This document shows, piece by piece, positions 2,963 through 21,955 of a stretch of 25,968 bases of DNA. The notes beneath the pieces are model-generated. The model was not told the DNA's origin. It saw only the letters and a program-made list of their open reading frames with translations, and made no database searches. Position 1 is the first letter of the stretch. Each line of letters starts with the position of its first letter. The position numbers were made by a program, and so were the translations under genes. Source of the stretch: a virus (taxonomy: Duplodnaviria > Heunggongvirae > Uroviricota > Caudoviricetes); IMG/VR virus record IMGVR_UViG_2541047695_000005, positions 1-25,968 of that record. The stretch is one strand, 5' to 3'.

Positions 2963-3295
2963 TTAAACGATGCTGATTGCCGTTCCGGCAAACGCGGTCC
3001 GTTTTTTCGTCTCGTCGCTGGCAGCCTCCGGCCAGAGCACATCCTCATAACGGAACGTGCCGGACTTGTAGAACGTCAGCGTGGTGCTGGTCTGGTCAGC
3101 AGCAACCGCCAGAATGCCAACGGCAGCACCGTCGGTGGTGCCATCCCACGCAACCAGCTTACGGGTGGCGGTGTCCAGCATCAGCGGGGTCATTGCAGGC
3201 GCTTTCGCACTCAATCCGCCGGGCGCGGTTGCGGTATGAGCCGGGTCACTGTTGCCCAGCGGCTGGTAATGGGTAAAGGTTTCTTTGCTCGTCAT
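2963..3295 (-). CDS. D: head decoration protein D
   Basis: From the third codon of the track ORF: [27 protein letters not shown]..., 110 aa, matching lambda gpD; 9-nt gap after the C stop as in lambda. Confidence 0.9.
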
Positions 3296-4624: not shown

Positions 4625-8305
<3,681 letters not shown>

Positions 8306-9239: not shown

Positions 9240-9473
9240 ATGTCAACGAAGAACAAAACCCGCAGAACAACAACCCGCAACATCCGCTTTCCTAACCAAA
9301 TGATTGAACAAATTAACATCGCTCTTGATCAAAAAGGGTCCGGGAATTTCTCAGCCTGGGTCATTGAAGCCTGCCGCCGGAGACTGTGCTCAGAAAAAAG
9401 AGTTTCTCCTGAAGCAAACAAAGAAAAGAGTGACATTACTGAATTGCTCAGAAAACAGGTCAGACCAGATTGA
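9240..9473 (+). CDS. small ribbon-helix-helix-like DNA-binding protein (putative)
   Basis: 77-aa ORF with a basic N-terminus, then a strand-helix-loop-helix pattern (RNIRFPNQMIEQINIALDQKGSGNFSAWVIEACRRRL) typical of Arc/MetJ/CopG-type RHH proteins; opposite orientation to the late operon. Confidence 0.45.
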   Translation: MSTKNKTRRTTTRNIRFPNQMIEQINIALDQKGSGNFSAWVIEACRRRLCSEKRVSPEANKEKSDITELLRKQVRPD

Positions 9474-9530
9474 AGCAATTTAGATAATCGTGCAGACTAC
9501 GCCCCCTCATATCACATGGAAGGTTTATCT

Positions 9531-9941
9531 ATGGATCAGGTAGTCATTTTTAAACAAATATTTGATAAAGTTCGAAACGATTTAAACTATCAATGGTTTT
9601 ATTCTGAGCTAAAACGTCACAATGTCTCACATTACATTTACTATTTAGCCACAGAGAATGTTCATATTGTATTAAAAAATGATAATACAGTGTTATTAAA
9701 GGGCCTAAAAAACATTGTGTCTGTCAAATTTTCAAAGGATAGGCATCTTATAGAAACGACCTCTAATAAGCTGAAATCCAGAGAGATCACATTTCAGGAA
9801 TACAGAAGAAACCTTGCTAAAGCAGGAGTTTTTCGGTGGGTTACAAATATCCACGAACAAAAAAGATATTACTATACCTTTGATAATTCATTACTCTTTA
9901 CTGAAAACATACAGAGCACATCACAAATGTTTCCACACTAA
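9531..9941 (+). CDS. DUF1398 (YbcV/YdfO-like) family protein, putative
   Basis: Second ATG of the track ORF has the better RBS (GGAAGG, 7-nt spacing); the C-terminal AGVFRWV motif and the cos-proximal position resemble the YbcV/YdfO family of K-12 lambdoid prophages. Assigned from memory. Confidence 0.45.
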
Positions 9942-10243
9942 ACCATAACGTCCGGTTTCTTCTACCCCTGCACCGGACTGGCTGACATGAAGAGCAACCC
10001 CGCGTTCAGTTGACACGTTAATAACCCGGTGTGCATCGTTTTTGATTATTCCCGCACACTCACGCAGAAGGAATTCCCCGTCGGGCTACGGTCATGGTTA
10101 ATGCGGGAATACGGCGACGATACAGCGCATGATGTGTCAGGCTTGAATACCTTTATCCGTTAAAAGGGATATCAGTTAAGTTATCCCGTGCAGGGTATAA
10201 GCCATTATCAAGCCCCCCGTAGATAGGCTTTGTAATGACATCT

Positions 10244-13327: not shown

Positions 13328-13512
13328 TCCGGCTCAGTTGCACCACTGACCACCACATCACCTTCTGCTGCAATCGCCTGCATCAGGGTATAAGGGGTTA
13401 TGGCCACCGGACTACCAAACGGCTGCCAGCCCTCTTTCAGTTTATGTGTCAGCTTTTCCGCAAGATCTGACGGCGGCGCCGCCCTGACAACATCATAGTG
13501 TTTAAATGCCAT
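13324..13512 (-). CDS. small conserved phage protein (DUF1737-like) upstream of the holin
   Basis: ATG at residue 5 of the track ORF with GGAAAG RBS; MAFKHYDVVRAAPPSDLAEKLTHKLKEGWQPFGSPVAITPYTLMQAIAAEG fits the short GWQP.G family commonly found just upstream of lambdoid holins. Confidence 0.5.
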   Translation of the reverse strand: MAFKHYDVVRAAPPSDLAEKLTHKLKEGWQPFGSPVAITPYTLMQAIAAEGDVVVSGATEPE

Positions 13513-13772
13513 GGTTCTTTCCACTATCTGAAAAATAATTCTTTAAAATACCTGACATGTAATACAGAAAAAACACAAAACTATACCTTAAATAAAAACC
13601 TGATTATCAAGCAGATATGCATGGATAAACTACAAGACGAGATATAAACCACCCTGCATTTAAATAAACAATAAACAACATCAGAAAAATAATTCTGCTC
13701 TATGGTTTACATTCAAAAATATCATTTATACTTTTCAGGACATCACCAGCAAGGCATAAACAAGGAAACCAA

Positions 13773-14108
13773 ATGAAGTGGATTGTGATTGATACAGTTA
13801 TCCAGCCATCATGCGGAATATCTTTTTCAGTCATATGGAGTAAAATAAAATTAATAATCTGGTATCAATCGGATGCTTTCTTACCTCCTGAAAGTATATT
13901 TACACTGACTCACACAGGCATCATGCTCAATAACAAAGTGCTACCTGTAACCATTTACAACGTAGTACCATTCAATAAAACATTCTGGAATTTAATCAAA
14001 AACAGCCAGGAATGCCCTACAAATACAGATAACGTATTGAATGAATGCTTTAATAACCGTTGCACTCTGCAAATATGTCCTTATGGACTAAAACAACAAA
14101 GTCCATAA
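13773..14108 (+). CDS. hypothetical Cys-rich 111-aa protein (moron, own promoter)
   Basis: ATG preceded by AAGGAA at about 7 nt; upstream TTTACA-15 nt-TATACT promoter-like motif at about 13706-13732; very AT-rich; C-terminal Cys pattern [26 protein letters not shown]; a hairpin (CAGCCCCTC-CGGA-GAGGGGCTG) about 35 nt downstream. Confidence 0.4.
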
Positions 14109-14555
14109 GGAGTTTACTCACATCTGACAAAATCAATATAAACAGCCCCTCCGGAGAGGGGCTGGAGAGTGGCGCTATGTGCCATTGCATGGTGCCGGGT
14201 GCCTCCCGGTGAATTCAGTACCAGCACCTGAATCCGCGATTATCCCATATACCTACTCGCTGATTGCCCCTCCGCACAGGGGGATTCACCATGCCAGTTT
14301 CTTTTAACAAACTCCCCGCAAACCAGACAACAGTCAACCGCCTGAATTGTGAAGTATTTAAAAATTTCTCCCGCTAACTGATACCCGGCTAACAGTCTGG
14401 CGTTTTCTTTTTCAGCAACGGAAAAGCAACAACCACCACACCTGCCACCAGCACACCGTCAGCCAGCACTGACATTATCCGGCTGCTGCAATGCCATTCA
14501 CAAAAACAGTAAGCAATCACTTTTTACCGTAACAGGTGATAATCCAGATATGTAT

Positions 14556-15019: not shown

Positions 15020-15095
15020 TGGCGCGCTGTACTGGATTTGAACCAGCGACCTGGCGATTATGAGTCGCTCGCTCTCACCACTGAGCTAAAGGACC
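15020..15095 (-). tRNA. tRNA-like gene, anticodon CAT (Ile2/Met-type), acceptor stem unpaired - probable pseudo-tRNA
   Basis: The minus strand aligns arm by arm with the E. coli tRNA-Ile2 cloverleaf (D-arm GCTC-AGTGGTGA-GAGC, anticodon loop CTCATAA, T-arm GCTGG-TTCAAAT-CCAGT, encoded CCA), but the 5' acceptor GGTCCTT cannot pair with the 3' ACAGCGC. Confidence 0.5.
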
Positions 15096-15130
15096 GGGAG
15101 CAGAATAATAACGGTCCGTAATTAATTCCG

Positions 15131-18231: not shown

Positions 18232-18387
18232 TTACTCCTCAGGTTCGTAGACTGTGAAGACAGCGACCTCCGTCTGGCCGGTTCGGATTCGTACCTCGCA
18301 GAGGTCTTTCCTCGTTACCAGTGCCGTCACTATGACGGTTAAACAGATGACGATCAGGGCGATTAACATCGCCTTTTGCTGCTTCAT
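18232..18387 (-). CDS. hok: Hok/Gef family type I toxin
   Basis: In-frame ATG at residue 20 of the track ORF gives MKQQKAMLIALIVICLTVIVTALVTRKDLCEVRIRTGQTEVAVFTVYEPEE (51 aa), near-identical to E. coli HokD as I recall it. Confidence 0.85.
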   Translation of the reverse strand: MKQQKAMLIALIVICLTVIVTALVTRKDLCEVRIRTGQTEVAVFTVYEPEE

Positions 18388-18444
18388 AGCCTGCTTCTCC
18401 TTGCCTTTCGGCACGTAAGAGGCTAACCTAGATTTGCCGTTCAT
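18232..18444 (-). CDS. mok: mok-like N-terminally extended frame (70 codons) overlapping hok
   Basis: The same frame extended upstream by 19 codons; 70 codons equals the classical mok length in hok/mok/sok loci. Confidence 0.5.
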   Translation of the reverse strand: MNGKSRLASYVPKGKEKQAMKQQKAMLIALIVICLTVIVTALVTRKDLCEVRIRTGQTEVAVFTVYEPEE

Positions 18445-18500
18445 AGATTGAGCCTCAGATTAATGTTAAGCGTCTTGCAGGACGCGTAATGTTAACTGGG
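18430..18500 (+). ncRNA. sok: putative Sok-like antisense RNA (bounds approximate)
   Basis: Plus-strand TTGCCT-17 nt-TAACCT at about 18401-18429 would start a transcript antisense to the mok start region; a GCGTC-TTGCAG-GACGC hairpin lies at about 18471-18487. Inferred from hok/sok architecture, not verified. Confidence 0.3.
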
Positions 18501-18562
18501 GCTTTTCTCTATCTGCCTTTGGTGTTCATGCCTGAGACAGATAGCCTCAAGCACCCGCAGCC

Positions 18563-18591: not shown

Positions 18592-18991
18592 TATGAAATC
18601 AGTCAGAAAGGCGATCCATAAGAACAACAGCAAGGCAATAAATTGCCATTACAGCAGCAATAGCCAGCGCACATTTGAGAACCAGCACCACAACCTCCTG
18701 TATTGGACGTACACCAGTCCTGATAAATATGAGGCTGTCTCGTCAGTGATTCAATACAACTATTGGGTATAGTTTCTGTGATTTTGTTCTGTAGAAATGG
18801 AACATAATAACCTGTCACCACCAGCACTTCTTTAAATACGCCAAGTCCGACGCAAGCTAACCTTCTAGCCCGCTTTGAGCGAAGAACGGACTGAGTAATT
18901 CAGGCCGTTAGCGACACTATGACATCATTAGCAACCAACTAGGAGTTGGTAATAGATGAGTTAATTAATTGATTAAAAACCGACGATTTTA

Positions 18992-19019
18992 CTAGATTAC
19001 GGGAAGAAGAAAGGCCGCT
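18992..19019 (-). terminator. intrinsic terminator after the 65-aa gene
   Basis: Minus strand AGGCCG-TACCAG-CGGCCT followed by TTCTTCTTCC. Confidence 0.35.
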
Positions 19020-19054
19020 GGTACGGCCTCCCAGAGACTAGTCTATTGTTATGC

Positions 19055-19252
19055 TTAGAAACGCTTTTCTATCTCTTTTTCTCTTTCGTTTATTGCATCG
19101 TCAATGATTTTTTTTGCTGAATTAATTTGTGGTGTTTTTTCTGGTAATACATCTTCAAGATCTTTGGCAATTTTCTTTAATTTATCGATTTCTTTAGTTA
19201 AATCAGTTACAGATTTATCCGCTATTGACTTTGTCATTTTTCCATATTCCAT
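19055..19252 (-). CDS. hypothetical small coiled-coil protein
   Basis: 65-aa ORF, Lys/Glu/Asp-rich helical composition (KEIDKLKKIAKDLEDVL...), AT-rich, followed by its own hairpin terminator; no family recognised. Confidence 0.35.
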   Translation of the reverse strand: MEYGKMTKSIADKSVTDLTKEIDKLKKIAKDLEDVLPEKTPQINSAKKIIDDAINEREKEIEKRF

Positions 19253-19425
19253 TCAATTTATTTATCAATCAGTTACCCGTAAACCTTATCATGGATTCCA
19301 ATTATCGACAGCTGGGATTTTTACTTTCTTGATCTGCCCCAGGCGAATGACATATCCCCATTAACCAATGTCCGCTCCTAGCACTTAGTAGACATTAATA
19401 GATTGTAAGCGTTCCCGTCATGTAG

Positions 19426-19806
19426 CGGTCACCGATTGGTGATGAATTGAAGCGGATCATTGATGAAAGTCGCAATAACGTGGCCAGCCCATTTATCGTT
19501 CACCAGATCCCGGAACGGCAGGTTAAACGCAGCAAAGAAGTTTCTCATCCCACTCAAGTTGCACCAGACTATTTGAGTCGGTCGTTTTCAGCTACGCGTG
19601 ACAAGCTGGGTTTATATGACAAACGGCCGATGGATGAAAGGCCAACCTTTCACGAAATTCGCGCCTTAGCAGCACATCTTTTTGATCAGCAGGGCATCGA
19701 TCCACAAGGACGAATGGCACACAGCGATGCGAAATCAACTAAAATCTACACGCAAAACCATATCGACTGGGTTGTAGTTCCACATGGAGAAATTAAAGCC
19801 AGCTAG
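19426..19806 (+). pseudogene. tyrosine integrase, C-terminal catalytic fragment only (truncated)
   Basis: The open frame starts right after an in-frame stop, with no N-terminal domains; it contains the integrase box-II-like segment RPTFHEIRALAAHLFDQQGIDPQGRMAHSDAKSTKIYTQ (H-x-x-R ... H ... Y). Confidence 0.6.
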
Positions 19807-19899
19807 CACCAAGTAAGGCATAGAATTTTATTAACCAAGGAGCATATGACCAGTAATTAATTCTTACCGGAAAGTTAGCCCTGCTAAAATTAATATTAA

Positions 19900-19936
19900 C
19901 AAATAAAAAAATAGGGGCAAATATTTATATTTGCCC
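19900..19936 (-). terminator. intrinsic terminator immediately downstream of the two-gene nucleotidyltransferase/2TM operon
   Basis: Perfect 10-bp inverted repeat GGGCAAATAT/ATATTTGCCC about 12 nt after the stop codon, followed on the minus strand by a long U-tract (TATTTTTTTTATTTG). Confidence 0.5.
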
Positions 19937-19947
19937 TCGCAACATAT

Positions 19948-20529
19948 TTATCTTCTTTTCAGTTCCTTGGGAAGAAAAGCATCTATTTCTTCTTCAGAAA
20001 ATGTTAAATCTTCTTTGTTTTTTAATGCGTCCTGTGCTTTTTTATAAGCTTCAAATGTTGTACTAGGAGAGCCTGAATACACTGAATGTAAACTCTCGAG
20101 TAACGAATCCCGCTCTGACTGCAATTGCTCGATTGGTTTTTCACCCATTGCTAAGTCTGTAAGCAATGATAAATACTTTTCTCGGATTAACCAGATCTCA
20201 TTTGCAGCCTGCTTATGTTTTTGCGCCAACTCACCAAGGTCATAATCTTTGGTATAAGCGTTAAGAATGAGAAGCAGTGTTGATACAACAATCCCAACCC
20301 CCGTGCCTACTTCACCCGCGCCGAAAAAAGTTGCTAGAAAGCCTCCAGTAGTTAAGGCGGAGAGAATTATTTGCCAAAACTTTATAGAAGATAGTCGAGA
20401 TAGGAGAATGTCTGAGCATTTTTCATGCGTCTTATGTGAGTAAACGACCCGACCATAACACTCTCTGATCTGCCCTTCTAAAACCCTTCTAGATTCAGGT
20501 GTATCCTTAGTCTGGAAATGTTGATCCAT
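19948..20529 (-). CDS. SLATT-like two-transmembrane-helix effector protein (putative)
   Basis: ATG at residue 20 of the track ORF with GGGAG RBS, overlapping the upstream gene by 23 nt; 193 aa with a soluble N-terminus, two adjacent TM helices (WQIILSALTTGGFLATFFGAG and GVGIVVSTLLLILNAYT) and a helical C-terminal half, the SLATT architecture. Confidence 0.55.
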   Translation of the reverse strand: MDQHFQTKDTPESRRVLEGQIRECYGRVVYSHKTHEKCSDILLSRLSSIKFWQIILSALTTGGFLATFFGAGEVGTGVGIVVSTLLLILNAYTKDYDLGELAQKHKQAANEIWLIREKYLSLLTDLAMGEKPIEQLQSERDSLLESLHSVYSGSPSTTFEAYKKAQDALKNKEDLTFSEEEIDAFLPKELKRR

Positions 20530-21388
20530 AAATCTCCCGCCATTTTTGCTTAGCCGACCATTCGCGTTTTGGGGTCGCCATTTCATGCTCTATAGCTTCG
20601 AGTGAAATGTTATAGCACCGTTTTGCTTTATATTGGAAAAGCCCTTTACCATAGACATACTGACCACTTCCTGGCGCTTTCCAATACTCCTTACTCGTAT
20701 CTTGATCAGCCATCCATTTGAAGAAATCACGACTCATGAAATCGTAGTAAAGATACGACTTATCTCTATGCGCCCAATTTTCAATGAATTGATACGCAAG
20801 CGTATCAATGAGTAAACCACTTATAGGTACATCCCATTTACGCTTCCAAGCTCTTGCCATTCTACAAAGTTGCACCAAATTGTTATTGGTAATGTTATTT
20901 CTTAACCTCATTGCAGAAATTTCTGGCTTTGGATTTGTAATCCTCCAACGGCCACCACCGTTCGCATCAGGAAATGTGTAACTATCACTAACATTGAGGA
21001 AAGCTGGAACGACTTCAAATGTAATTCCATCATTGAACGGTACAAGGATCACTTGACCGTCACCTCTAATACTAGTGGTAGCATAGGTTTTTTCAATAGA
21101 TCTCTTAACCGCTTGAAGCAATGCTGACTGCCCATTTCCTAAGTAGCTATTGTATTTTTGATACTCGGAATATGGTAGCTGAAAAATCATATCCAGATCG
21201 CTCAAGCCTTGCGTAGCTGTGTTCCGACCATATGATCCAACGTAGAGACTATGAGAAGTATCAGAACTGCTATCCCAAAAATCCGTATTTAAACGCTTCG
21301 TTATATTCCTATATCTAGTTGAAATTGTTCCACCATCTTTTACAGTAAGATTGGAGCAAAATCCGCAAAACCACTCAGCTAAACCCAT
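20507..21388 (-). CDS. cGAS/DncV-like (SMODS-type) nucleotidyltransferase (putative cyclic-oligonucleotide synthase)
   Basis: ATG at residue 3 of the track ORF with AAGGAA RBS; motif LYVGSYGRNTATQGLSDLDMIF matches the GS-x-x-R-x-T ... D-x-D nucleotidyltransferase signature of CD-NTase/SMODS enzymes; AT-rich; a perfect TATAAT lies upstream at about 21540. Confidence 0.6.
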   Translation of the reverse strand: MGLAEWFCGFCSNLTVKDGGTISTRYRNITKRLNTDFWDSSSDTSHSLYVGSYGRNTATQGLSDLDMIFQLPYSEYQKYNSYLGNGQSALLQAVKRSIEKTYATTSIRGDGQVILVPFNDGITFEVVPAFLNVSDSYTFPDANGGGRWRITNPKPEISAMRLRNNITNNNLVQLCRMARAWKRKWDVPISGLLIDTLAYQFIENWAHRDKSYLYYDFMSRDFFKWMADQDTSKEYWKAPGSGQYVYGKGLFQYKAKRCYNISLEAIEHEMATPKREWSAKQKWREIYGSTFPD

Positions 21389-21681
21389 GCTCAATTCCTT
21401 TTCTAAAATCTAATGAAAAATTCAAGGGCGCATGTTCCATGCATCATTGATAACTTTTTTCAGTCAGCTAGAGCAACATAATTGATACTAACTAGCTGTT
21501 TCTTCAAGTGAGTAACCTACTTTAGCATCAAGGTATTATACCTACCAAGCATGGGGAGAAACCACCACTTAAGCCATTGAAGTATATAGAGCAGATTTTG
21601 TTGAAAAAGCACTGTTTGTTTATACATATGAATAGTGCTTTTAACCAGCAATAGCGCGGCTCTCAGCGTTTTACAAGCAGT

Positions 21682-21730
21682 GTCATGGGGTGTCGGGGAT
21701 CGGAAGTTCAAATCCTCTCGTGCCGACCCA
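21682..21730 (+). other. 3' fragment of a tRNA-Pro(GGG) gene (att-site-like remnant), about 50 nt, no 5' half
   Basis: GTCATGGGGTGTCGGGGATCGGAAGTTCAAATCCTCTCGTGCCGACCCA matches the anticodon-loop-to-3'-end portion of E. coli tRNA-Pro (proL type) with a few mismatches as recalled; the upstream sequence does not form the 5' half. Confidence 0.65.
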
Positions 21731-21742
21731 AAAGATTATATA

Positions 21743-21770
21743 AACCAGCCTGTTATTGCTGGTTTTTTAT
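21743..21770 (+). terminator. intrinsic terminator just downstream of the tRNA-Pro fragment
   Basis: AACCAGC-CTGTTATT-GCTGGTT followed by TTTTTAT on the plus strand. Confidence 0.45.
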
Positions 21771-21955
21771 GCCTACCTTCCTGGTAGGGAAGCTATGGGG
21801 AATTACTGGGGAATCCCCCCTTTACCTGCTCCCATTAAACTAACATAGCACGATGTAAGCAACTTCCGCTTCTGGCACAAAGCGGACAACCACGCTAGCT
21901 CTACCCTGTGCCACAAAATGTCAATTTACATCTGAACTAATGCACTTTAATCTCG

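Follow-up and report, generated by a model that had tools for sequence, protein, structure and literature searches.

The window analysed here, which is the whole stretch of 25,968 nucleotides (positions 1 to 25,968 of the IMG/VR virus record IMGVR_UViG_2541047695_000005), raises the question of why the stub of an integrase gene and half of a tRNA gene lie in the middle of a prophage, on either side of a defence operon. A preliminary description had read the region as the scar of a tRNA-Pro-targeting island or satellite nested in the prophage, or alternatively as a recombination joint between two prophages. Our analysis indicated that the region is very probably what remains of the integration module of another temperate phage, with an intact CBASS operon inside it, within an E. 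coli Qin-like prophage. The block was pasted in by ordinary phage-phage recombination; this is common mosaicism and not a new kind of element, and the oddity of an integrase stub and half a tRNA in mid-prophage is that of lambdoid mosaicism in general. The features of the block are as follows.

18869-18891, no strand: left recombination junction, Evi-like up to TGAGCGA and then donor-like (AR435 type) in a three-way comparison
18892-19430, no strand: left part of the imported block, 36% GC, with a small coiled-coil-like ORF at 19055-19252 on the minus strand
19431-19806, plus strand: truncated tyrosine integrase (int'), the last ~124 codons of a lambda-type integrase, with the ORF at 19447-19806
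19807-21550, minus strand: CBASS cargo cassette (moron), filling the slot between the integrase stop codon and the P arm of attP
19915-19936, minus strand: intrinsic terminator 3' of the SLATT gene, from a terminator scan (fold -11.8 kcal/mol, z = -2.5)
19948-20586, minus strand: SLATT_4 two-transmembrane effector (Pfam SLATT_4, E = 6e-74; PADLOC 2TM effector PDLC00696, 280 bits)
20507-21394, minus strand: SMODS-family CD-NTase, an oligonucleotide cyclase (Pfam SMODS, E = 2e-50; PADLOC cyclase PDLC00786)
21551-21681, plus strand: P arm of the putative attP, on the integrase side, matching phage attPs
21682-21733, plus strand: att core, a copy of the proL tRNA-Pro(GGG) from the anticodon loop to the 3' end with three substitutions
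21734-21854, plus strand: P' arm of the putative attP, with a hairpin terminator at 21744-21770 and paired TGGGGAA motifs at 21796 and 21807
21855-21885, no strand: right recombination junction, donor-like up to TGGCACA and then Evi-like

Analysis of the integrase remnant agreed with the preliminary description, which had recognised in it only the C-terminal catalytic segment of an integrase, about 140 bp from the 2TM gene. Against the Pfam profile Phage_integrase, the ORF covers positions 110-168 of 172 only, with positions 1-109 missing, and its stop codon lies 141 bp from that of the SLATT gene. Its translation aligns with residues 274-392 of a full-length, 392-aa integrase at 89% identity, and the C-termini of integrases of this length share 89-92% identity with the fragment. 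At the DNA level, the homology to full-length int begins abruptly at position 19431, corresponding to residue ~268, which marks the breakpoint. The HxxR motif, the His and the Tyr nucleophile are retained, with HEIRALAAH, AHSD and KIYTQ seen in the translation. Alignment to full-length relatives revealed that the arm-binding domain, the core-binding (SAM-like) domain and the catalytic Arg I are absent; the Arg I region reads THARLEV(SRI) in the relatives, and two of these (L096 and L012) match the Arm-DNA-bind_1 and Phage_int_SAM domains. The remnant has neither the N-terminal DNA-binding domains nor the complete catalytic set of a functional member of the lambda Int family. Because profile positions 1-109 and the Arg I region (THARLEV) are missing, the integrase is, to judge by its sequence, dead; RefSeq labels it as an incomplete, frameshifted 'recombinase'.

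On the other side of the operon, a copy of about 50 nt of the 3' end of tRNA-Pro(GGG), with a few mismatches and no 5' half, had been proposed, and this was borne out. Of the 52 bases at 21682-21733, 49 agree with proL of E. coli genomes (94.2%, E = 2e-12), and the 5' half of the tRNA is absent, since neither ARAGORN nor Rfam detects a tRNA at the core site. Two of the three substitutions are common to AR435-type copies. The core appears to be decaying, because it departs from proL at three positions, whereas Eeyore and Flotzy, two free phages, have cores without any difference from proL here. A 24-nt pattern of the core occurs once in the window and in none of 100 shuffles.

Comparison of the sequences flanking the core with those of phages revealed phage-type arms on both sides. 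The P arm matches the phage side of attR in the E203449 proL prophage at 106 of 130 bases, the attPs of the free phages Eeyore and Flotzy at 93 of 127, and Enterobacter at 101 of 126. The P' arm contains, as had been noted earlier, a hairpin terminator directly after the tRNA piece (hairpin and T-run, fold -10.8 kcal/mol, z = -3.5). When the first 110 nt past the core were aligned with the P' arms of E203449 attL, N21, Eeyore and Flotzy, 75-79 of 100-104 bases agreed, a moderate likeness (~75%) in an arm that is cut at about 120-150 bp. The TGGGGA(A/G) motifs at 21552, 21796 and 21807 are clustered in the att region and conserved in phage attPs, while the TGGGGAR count over the whole window is not above chance; these motifs could be arm-type sites. 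Because phage-type arms lie on both sides of the core, the att site reads as a complete attP (P-core-P') and not as a half-site. It shares with tRNA-targeting attPs a near-identical tRNA 3' core between phage-specific arms, whereas an attL or attR does not fit a site with phage arms on both sides, a single copy of the core in the window and insert boundaries that lie off the core. The earlier reading of the region as the scar of a tRNA-Pro-targeting element thus stands in part: the integrase fragment and the tRNA piece belong to one foreign proL-targeting module with the operon as its cargo, but the site is not a half-site scar.

The right side of the core was also considered as bacterial sequence. 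If an aberrant excision, of the kind known from specialised transduction, had captured the right end of a proL prophage along with adjoining bacterial DNA, the site would be an attR and the hairpin the native enterobacterial proL terminator. The terminator after the core does resemble the one of native proL in E. coli (82-83% across 87 nt, core included) and in Enterobacter, but phage P' arms themselves have a terminator of the same design. Past the hairpin, the sequence departs from the chromosomal flank of both E. coli and Enterobacter and follows phage P' arms, with which it shares the GGGGAAT..TGGGG motif and CCTTTA. It aligned to phage P' arms with scores of 28-37, compared with 2-4 against native E. 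coli and 17 against Enterobacter (shuffle maximum 9), and only 29 of 44 bases match the native proL flank. We therefore consider a captured attR improbable.

A P-core-P' structure may be either a vegetative-form attP or the junction between two tandem lysogens, and these two are equivalent in sequence. Two tandem prophages at proL would give exactly this structure, and a hybrid carrying it could later have recombined into other prophages; a degenerate pseudo-tRNA-Pro found about 150 bp past the core in the tail-fibre context described below hints at a complex history at the tRNA-Pro site. However, no tandem junction at proL was present among the loci examined, and free phages already show P-core-P', so that nothing extra is needed. 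The tandem origin accordingly has only a small probability, and the site is treated below as the attP of a phage.

To which kind of element this attP belonged is indicated by the relatives of the integrase. An IMG/VR prophage contig (L096) is 92% identical in DNA over 19431-21728, carries the same cassette in the same slot, and ends within the core; its integrase is intact, with 392 amino acids and a lambda Arm-binding domain. In Enterobacter RIT637 (L012), the order int-SLATT-SMODS-att is followed by chromosomal MFS transporter and ecotin genes. The donor is a temperate phage and not a satellite or island, because genes for tail, baseplate and early functions accompany the integrase in its relatives, two of which are isolated free phages; the island or satellite origin offered by the preliminary description thus finds no support.

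Analysis of the composition and boundaries of the block indicated how it reached its present position. The block (18892-21854) has a GC content of 40.0%, whereas the backbone has 53.2% on one side and 51.1% on the other, which accords with the earlier description of the block as AT-rich. The CBASS cassette has 38.9% GC; the values of the integrase fragment (47%) and attP (44%) lie in between. The left part, 18892-19430, has no family in Pfam or PHROG; it is missing from phage Evi, whose backbone is shared, and is present in 48 of 5426 E. coli genomes, in every case with at least 99% identity and adjoining the integrase fragment. The backbone is shared with Evi at 96-97% identity, and an acetyltransferase and a regulator occupy the place of the ~3-kb block in that phage. 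Because Evi carries these other genes in the same backbone, the block is inserted and not ancestral, as anticipated; its boundaries at 18892 and 21854, however, lie off the att core. Both junctions are chimeric at 7-bp identities, joining Evi-like and AR435-like sequence, and the block therefore arrived by phage-phage recombination and not by site-specific integration. The joint between two prophages, which the preliminary description had given as its alternative, is thus the favoured reading. In the hokD-dicC region of the K-12 Qin prophage, only the hokD segment matches, so the K-12 genes between hokD and dicC are unrelated to the block. The hairpin CCGCTT-N-AAGCGG at the boundary was considered as a general module-junction signal and dropped; it is treated as a local microhomology because it occurs once in the window.

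These boundaries also bear on nested site-specific integration, in which a proL-targeting island or satellite with int, CBASS and att would have entered a tRNA-like site in the prophage and then decayed to the integrase fragment and a half-site. The usual int...att order in which the fragment and the tRNA-Pro core bracket the operon, and the foreign composition of the block, are what such an event would leave. Yet the core is flanked by P and P' phage arms with no target sequence on one side, the microhomologies at the block edges, 540 bp to the left of the integrase fragment and ~120 bp to the right of the core, have no relation to att, the block-free phage Evi shows no tRNA-like target at this place, and the integrase relatives are full phages. 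The second att half or flanking direct repeat that nested integration calls for did not appear either: short repeats at chance level were all that a search of the window and the block yielded, and a 161-nt query from the att region had only two matches in C5, the host genome with 100% identity, which we take to be the block's own copy and native proL. Nested integration is largely refuted and very improbable. The host prophage of the module has its own integrase and excisionase at its end, and the imported integrase fragment and attP are probably inert now.

The same block, at 99.6% identity, is found beside tfa/stf/lom/J of lambda-like prophages at three chromosomal sites. The transfer may have run from this tail-fibre context to the Qin-like context, a direction suggested by the chimeric junctions and the canonical lambdoid gene order. 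In the tail-fibre context, the degenerate pseudo-tRNA-Pro mentioned above is a second one, located past the P' arm, and our main account leaves it unexplained.

The bracketed nucleotidyltransferase/2TM operon, which had been called a defence operon from the start, was confirmed as such by its domains. The PADLOC cyclase model PDLC00786 is matched with 477 bits at 292 of 293 positions, and the translation of the SMODS gene contains the GS...DxD nucleotidyltransferase motif (VGSYGRN...LSDLDMIF). Distant PDB matches of the cyclase (E ~ 6e-9) are 6p82, 6p8u and 6p8j, with chains named 'Nucleotidyltransferase', and one named CdnD. The SMODS gene overlaps the start of the SLATT gene, which with the RefSeq start encodes 193 amino acids (19948-20529). 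Both genes match the PADLOC models end to end and both ORFs are intact; they are the only two genes between the integrase fragment and attP, without Cap2/Cap3 or HORMA/TRIP13 accessory genes. The cassette thus looks like an intact two-gene type I CBASS with a SMODS cyclase and a SLATT_4 2TM effector. The operon is at least 99% identical in 47 genomes, and the SMODS and SLATT gene pair is kept in 73 of 80 loci across many phyla. A simple sigma-70 scan of 21395-21550 found no convincing, consensus-like promoter for the cassette, and a search of the spacer 21395-21680 with Rfam at gathering and permissive thresholds gave chance miRNA-like matches only. By analogy with characterised CBASS, the system is presumably expressed and protective: infection would elicit a nucleotide signal that activates the effector, and the cell would die before phage maturation. 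That the tRNA-Pro 3' fragment and its terminator form a small RNA acting with or on CBASS, as a decoy or sensor, is extremely improbable: the terminator lies directly 3' of the fragment, and the fragment sits in a divergent intergenic region upstream of the cyclase gene, but no Rfam family matches even at E <= 10, the fold of the fragment and hairpin is not more stable than those of shuffles (z = -0.9), phages without CBASS have this sequence as their attP, CBASS homologues of Pectobacterium and many phyla are without the fragment, the substitutions lie in the T-arm region, and a scan of the plus strand upstream found no promoter-like site.

The identities, both phage arms, the intact relatives, the slot variability and the chimeric junctions are shown directly by the sequences; the direction and order of events are reconstructed as follows. 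The ancestral phage would have had the order int, cargo slot and attP. Its attP would have consisted of a P arm, a 48-52-nt copy of the 3' part of proL and a P' arm with a hairpin that, upon integration, would take over from the terminator of the tRNA gene. A two-gene type I CBASS would have come to occupy the cargo slot of this proL-integrating phage. The integrase would then have lost its first ~268 codons and hence its function, with the CBASS genes remaining intact while attP began drifting. Subsequently, a Qin/Evi-like lambdoid prophage would have received a copy of the ~3-kb block comprising the small ORF, the integrase fragment, CBASS and attP in its variable slot, which is bounded by the hok/sok locus on one side and the DUF977/replication genes on the other; probably, two crossovers at very short homologies replaced the prior cargo.

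The module resembles those of tRNA-targeting phages such as P22 at thrW and epsilon34 at argU, in which an Int with a lambda Arm-binding domain is transcribed towards the adjoining attP, phage arms flank the core, and the core copies the 3' part of the tRNA from the anticodon loop, so that the gene is rebuilt upon integration. In epsilon34, a 43-bp identity to argU lies just downstream of int (PMC2629481). The present module differs from both in that its integrase is reduced to the last third, its core has drifted by three substitutions, its position is mid-prophage and its target is proL. The cassette in turn resembles the morons or lysogenic-conversion cassettes beside int/att, such as gtrABC of P22, epsilon34 and SfV-type phages ('The moron comes of age', PMC3594210): it is independently terminated and AT-rich, lies between conserved phage genes, varies in presence and content, and probably benefits the lysogen. 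Unlike gtrABC, its cargo is a CBASS abortive-infection system and not an O-antigen modifier, and the cassette has outlived its integration module. In gene order, a CD-NTase (SMODS) gene followed by an overlapping two-helix effector gene, it is a type I CBASS with a 2TM effector in which nothing distinctive was found.

The practical value of these results is modest. Exact boundaries are now given for the CBASS cassette and for the ~3-kb block that moves it between prophages, and the unannotated attP (21551-21854) and the integrase pseudogene give no evidence of an active nested element. Two further ideas, unlikely when taken together, are that the fossil attP is usable with Int supplied in trans, allowing a proL-type phage, whether infecting or co-resident, to integrate into the Qin-like prophage or to swap CBASS site-specifically through recombination between the two attPs, and that retained 'dead' attPs are docking points that move defence cargo across unrelated phages, with the int-attP slot an unmined hotspot and its 239-289-aa genes new defence systems.

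Comparison of related phages revealed that this slot is variable. In the free phages Eeyore and Flotzy it is empty, with the int stop codon abutting the P arm. In related E. coli proL prophages it holds a gene of no known family encoding 289, 283 or 239 amino acids, or a pair of genes encoding 118 and 256 amino acids, the second of which is RelA_SpoT-like. A fixed slot by the integrase with differing defence and other systems across isolates is also seen in the P2 and P4 defence hotspots (Rousset et al. 2022, PMC9122126); here, in contrast, the lineage is that of Eeyore/E203449-like proL phages, the slot lies between int and attP and not at psu-int or the P2 loci, and the contents apart from CBASS are candidate defence genes only. 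The int-attP slot of proL phages, empty or occupied by CBASS, the RelA_SpoT-like pair or one of the three other genes, is a reasonable place for defence-gene hunting. Analysis of the alternative cargo genes with PADLOC and Pfam gave a single weak match, to RelA_SpoT at the gathering threshold.

Comparison with bacterial genomes identified the window as a Qin-like lambdoid E. coli prophage, in which 18800–22400 matches several strains, C5 (NZ_CP010122) among them, at 100% identity. The C5 prophage adjoins rspB/ynfA and carries its own integrase and excisionase at the prophage end. Around the block, an imported stretch of about 3 kb (18892–21854), the gene order is DUF968, hokD/sok, a small ORF, the integrase fragment (int'), SLATT, SMODS, DUF977, a replisome organiser, YdaT, and repressors. 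RefSeq already annotates SMODS, SLATT, and an incomplete 'recombinase', with the phage attachment site (attP) unannotated. The block has a GC content of 40% vs 51–53% in the backbone on both sides, in agreement with the AT richness noted in the preliminary description. The features of this region are as follows.

18232–18556: hokD/sok type I toxin-antitoxin locus (Rfam sok, 110 bits; Hok-like ORF at 18232–18444)
19447–19806, plus strand: int' ORF, Pfam integrase catalytic domain, last third only (profile positions 110–168 of 172)
19915–19936: intrinsic terminator after SLATT
21551–21681: P arm
21682–21733: core
21734–21854: P' arm
21744–21770: hairpin with T-run (-10.8 kcal/mol, z = -3.5)

The hokD/sok locus immediately adjoins the block on its left side and shares 97% DNA identity with hokD of K-12 Qin.

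The preliminary description had placed an integrase fragment with only the C-terminal catalytic part about 140 bp from the two-transmembrane (2TM) gene, and such a fragment is present, with 141 bp between its stop codon and that of SLATT. It shares 89% identity with residues 274–392 of the 392-aa integrase of a prophage in E. coli E203449, and the DNA homology to that gene starts abruptly at 19431. With neither the arm-binding nor the core-binding domain, and without Arg I, int' is expected to be inactive. The 539 bp to its left (18892–19430) were found only together with the block (48 genomes, at least 99%), which indicates that the integrase was truncated a single time, before the block spread.

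A copy of the tRNA-Pro(GGG) 3' end with a few mismatches, followed by a hairpin terminator, had also been described, and both were recovered. Alignment of 21682–21733 with proL in E. coli genomes, a gene identified as tRNA-Pro(GGG) by ARAGORN, gave 94.2% identity over 52 nt, beginning in the anticodon loop and reaching the 3' end, and no 5' half of the tRNA was detectable at this site. The E203449 prophage has inserted at proL, in the yejM–yejO interval, with the right end in the order int, 289-aa gene, phage arm, core, and yejO, and the left end in the order proL, phage arm, DinI-like gene, and onward. The 130 nt upstream of the window core matched the phage side of the E203449 attR at 106/130 positions, and the 110 nt downstream matched the phage side of attL at 75/104 positions vs 29/44 for the native chromosomal flank (alignment scores of 28–37; shuffled sequences never exceeded 9). 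The same P-core-P' arrangement immediately follows the integrase stop codon in the isolated free phages Eeyore and Flotzy, whose 395-aa integrase is 70% identical to int'. The phage arms on both sides of the core, as in the E203449 ends and in Eeyore and Flotzy, argue that the window holds a complete attP rather than an attL or attR half-site. The scar of a nested island proposed earlier was thus not borne out, and the matching direct repeat that would form a second att half did not appear: the window contains a single copy of the core, consistent with a complete attP, and no meaningful direct repeats bracketing the block were found. A 161-nt att-region query matched two places in the C5 genome, taken to be the window copy and native proL. 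A P-core-P' junction might also arise between tandem lysogens, in which case its sequence is equivalent to attP. The window core differs from proL by three substitutions, of which two are common to the copies in tail-fibre context, and the Eeyore and Flotzy cores are identical to proL. These substitutions fit drift after loss of function. There is a small residual possibility that Int provided in trans could still act on the attP.

A stray proL core copy with a P' arm (DinI side) was observed in an island adjoining ssrA in E. coli N21 (L004 9001–9086), where it is flanked by a GIY-YIG gene and by a DinI pseudogene within a prophage remnant. A degenerate tRNA 5' half just precedes this core, and the site looks like a fossil attL.

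The 1.74 kb between int' and the P arm (19807–21550) contains the two genes of a CBASS anti-phage operon, the terminator, and some 155 bp on the upstream side of the cyclase gene, in which a simple scan of the cassette revealed no consensus promoter. The genes, a SMODS cyclase and a SLATT_4 protein, are end-to-end PADLOC matches to the CBASS cyclase and 2TM-effector models, and family membership suggests that the cassette works as a type I CBASS abortive-infection system. Both ORFs are intact, and their sequence hardly varies among the 47 carriers in 5426 complete E. coli genomes. In two of these carriers, an insertion sequence interrupts the cassette (NZ_CP045827.1 3327107–3330160; L099 3873–5524, NZ_CM166344.1): IS1203 lies within the operon in one, and ISKpn26 truncates SLATT and removes int' in the other. 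The cassette genes occur without int or att in Pectobacterium, and the cyclase-SLATT pairing is kept in 73 of 80 loci across many phyla. The cyclase is unusually well conserved among genome contig matches (L011–L090), with 59–86% amino-acid identity across very distant phyla, including relatives in Pectobacterium, Brocadiaceae, Bacteroidales, Chloroflexota, Nitrospirota, and Cyanobacteria. This conservation, together with the adjacent SLATT, points to a two-gene system that has recently spread widely by horizontal transfer.

The same slot holds the CBASS cassette beside an intact 392-aa integrase with a lambda Arm-binding domain in two loci: an IMG/VR prophage contig (92% DNA identity from 19431 to 21728, the contig ending inside the core) and Enterobacter sp. 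RIT637 (78% identical, with att followed by chromosomal MFS transporter and ecotin genes). In other E. coli prophages at proL, whose integrases belong to this family and are intact, the slot carries different cargo, located as follows.

L003: 7730–8599
L101: 1970–2821
L102: 1950–3077
L103: 2076–2795

The cargo is a single gene of 289, 283, or 239 aa, none with a Pfam or PADLOC match, or a 118-aa and 256-aa pair, of which the 256-aa gene encodes a RelA_SpoT-like (small alarmone synthetase) domain that scores at the Pfam threshold. All of them are candidates for defence or toxin genes not yet described. Because the slot is empty in Eeyore and Flotzy and holds CBASS or other cargo elsewhere, the int-attP interval is a variable cargo locus with CBASS as one of its morons, which makes it a practical lead. 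It is classical for an integrase to stand beside an attP that reproduces the 3' portion of a tRNA gene, as in epsilon34/argU (PMC2629481), and the window module is alike. Cassettes inserted next to int/att (PMC3594210) and defence hotspots beside integrases in P2 and P4 (PMC9122126) are well documented, and the block is a further instance of this known kind of arrangement.

The alternative in the preliminary description, a recombination joint between prophages, proved right, so that its observation stood in full and its interpretation in this part. The free phage Evi, which lacks the block and defines its boundaries, shares 92–97% identity with the window backbone up to 18891 and again from 21855, with an acetyltransferase and a regulator in between. 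K-12 Qin has yet other genes at this position; the hok/sok-DUF977 slot is thus itself variable. The block (18876–21883, 99.6% identical) was found in at least three other settings, each at a different chromosomal site and each directly adjoining tfa/stf/lom/J of a lambda-like prophage, the canonical lambdoid place for attP and int. Both junctions are chimeric: the left is Evi-like as far as TGAGCGA and then donor-like, and the right is donor-like as far as TGGCACA and then Evi-like. In the simplest reading, an Evi-like backbone would have received a copy of the already truncated module from a tail-fibre-context donor through two crossovers, each at 7 bp of identity inside some 20 bp of imperfect homology; we infer the direction of this transfer.

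Evi has similar small hairpins (GTCCGCTT-N8-AAGCGGAC) at both edges of the variable slot (about 3070–3092 and 4476–4500 in L010; 18869–18891 and 21866–21885 in the window). The crossovers by which the block entered map inside these hairpins, which may be terminators or conserved linkers favouring module exchange. Two tail-fibre-context copies contain, outside the window, a second pseudo-tRNA-Pro (L098 about 7060–7140; L002 about 15040–15110), which is strongly degenerate, looks full-length, and is located between the P' arm and tfa, about 150 bp past the attP core. The right junction of the window falls on its first bases (CTGGCACA).

Elsewhere in the window, an STnc100 sRNA (132 bits; 14134–14323) and a tRNA-Met(CAT) gene (15020–15094), both on the minus strand, sit in AT-rich dips of the late-regulatory/lysis region. 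Sharp GC dips at 9250–10000 and 13500–14000 (0.35 and 0.31 vs about 0.5–0.58 around) probably mark other morons in the prophage.
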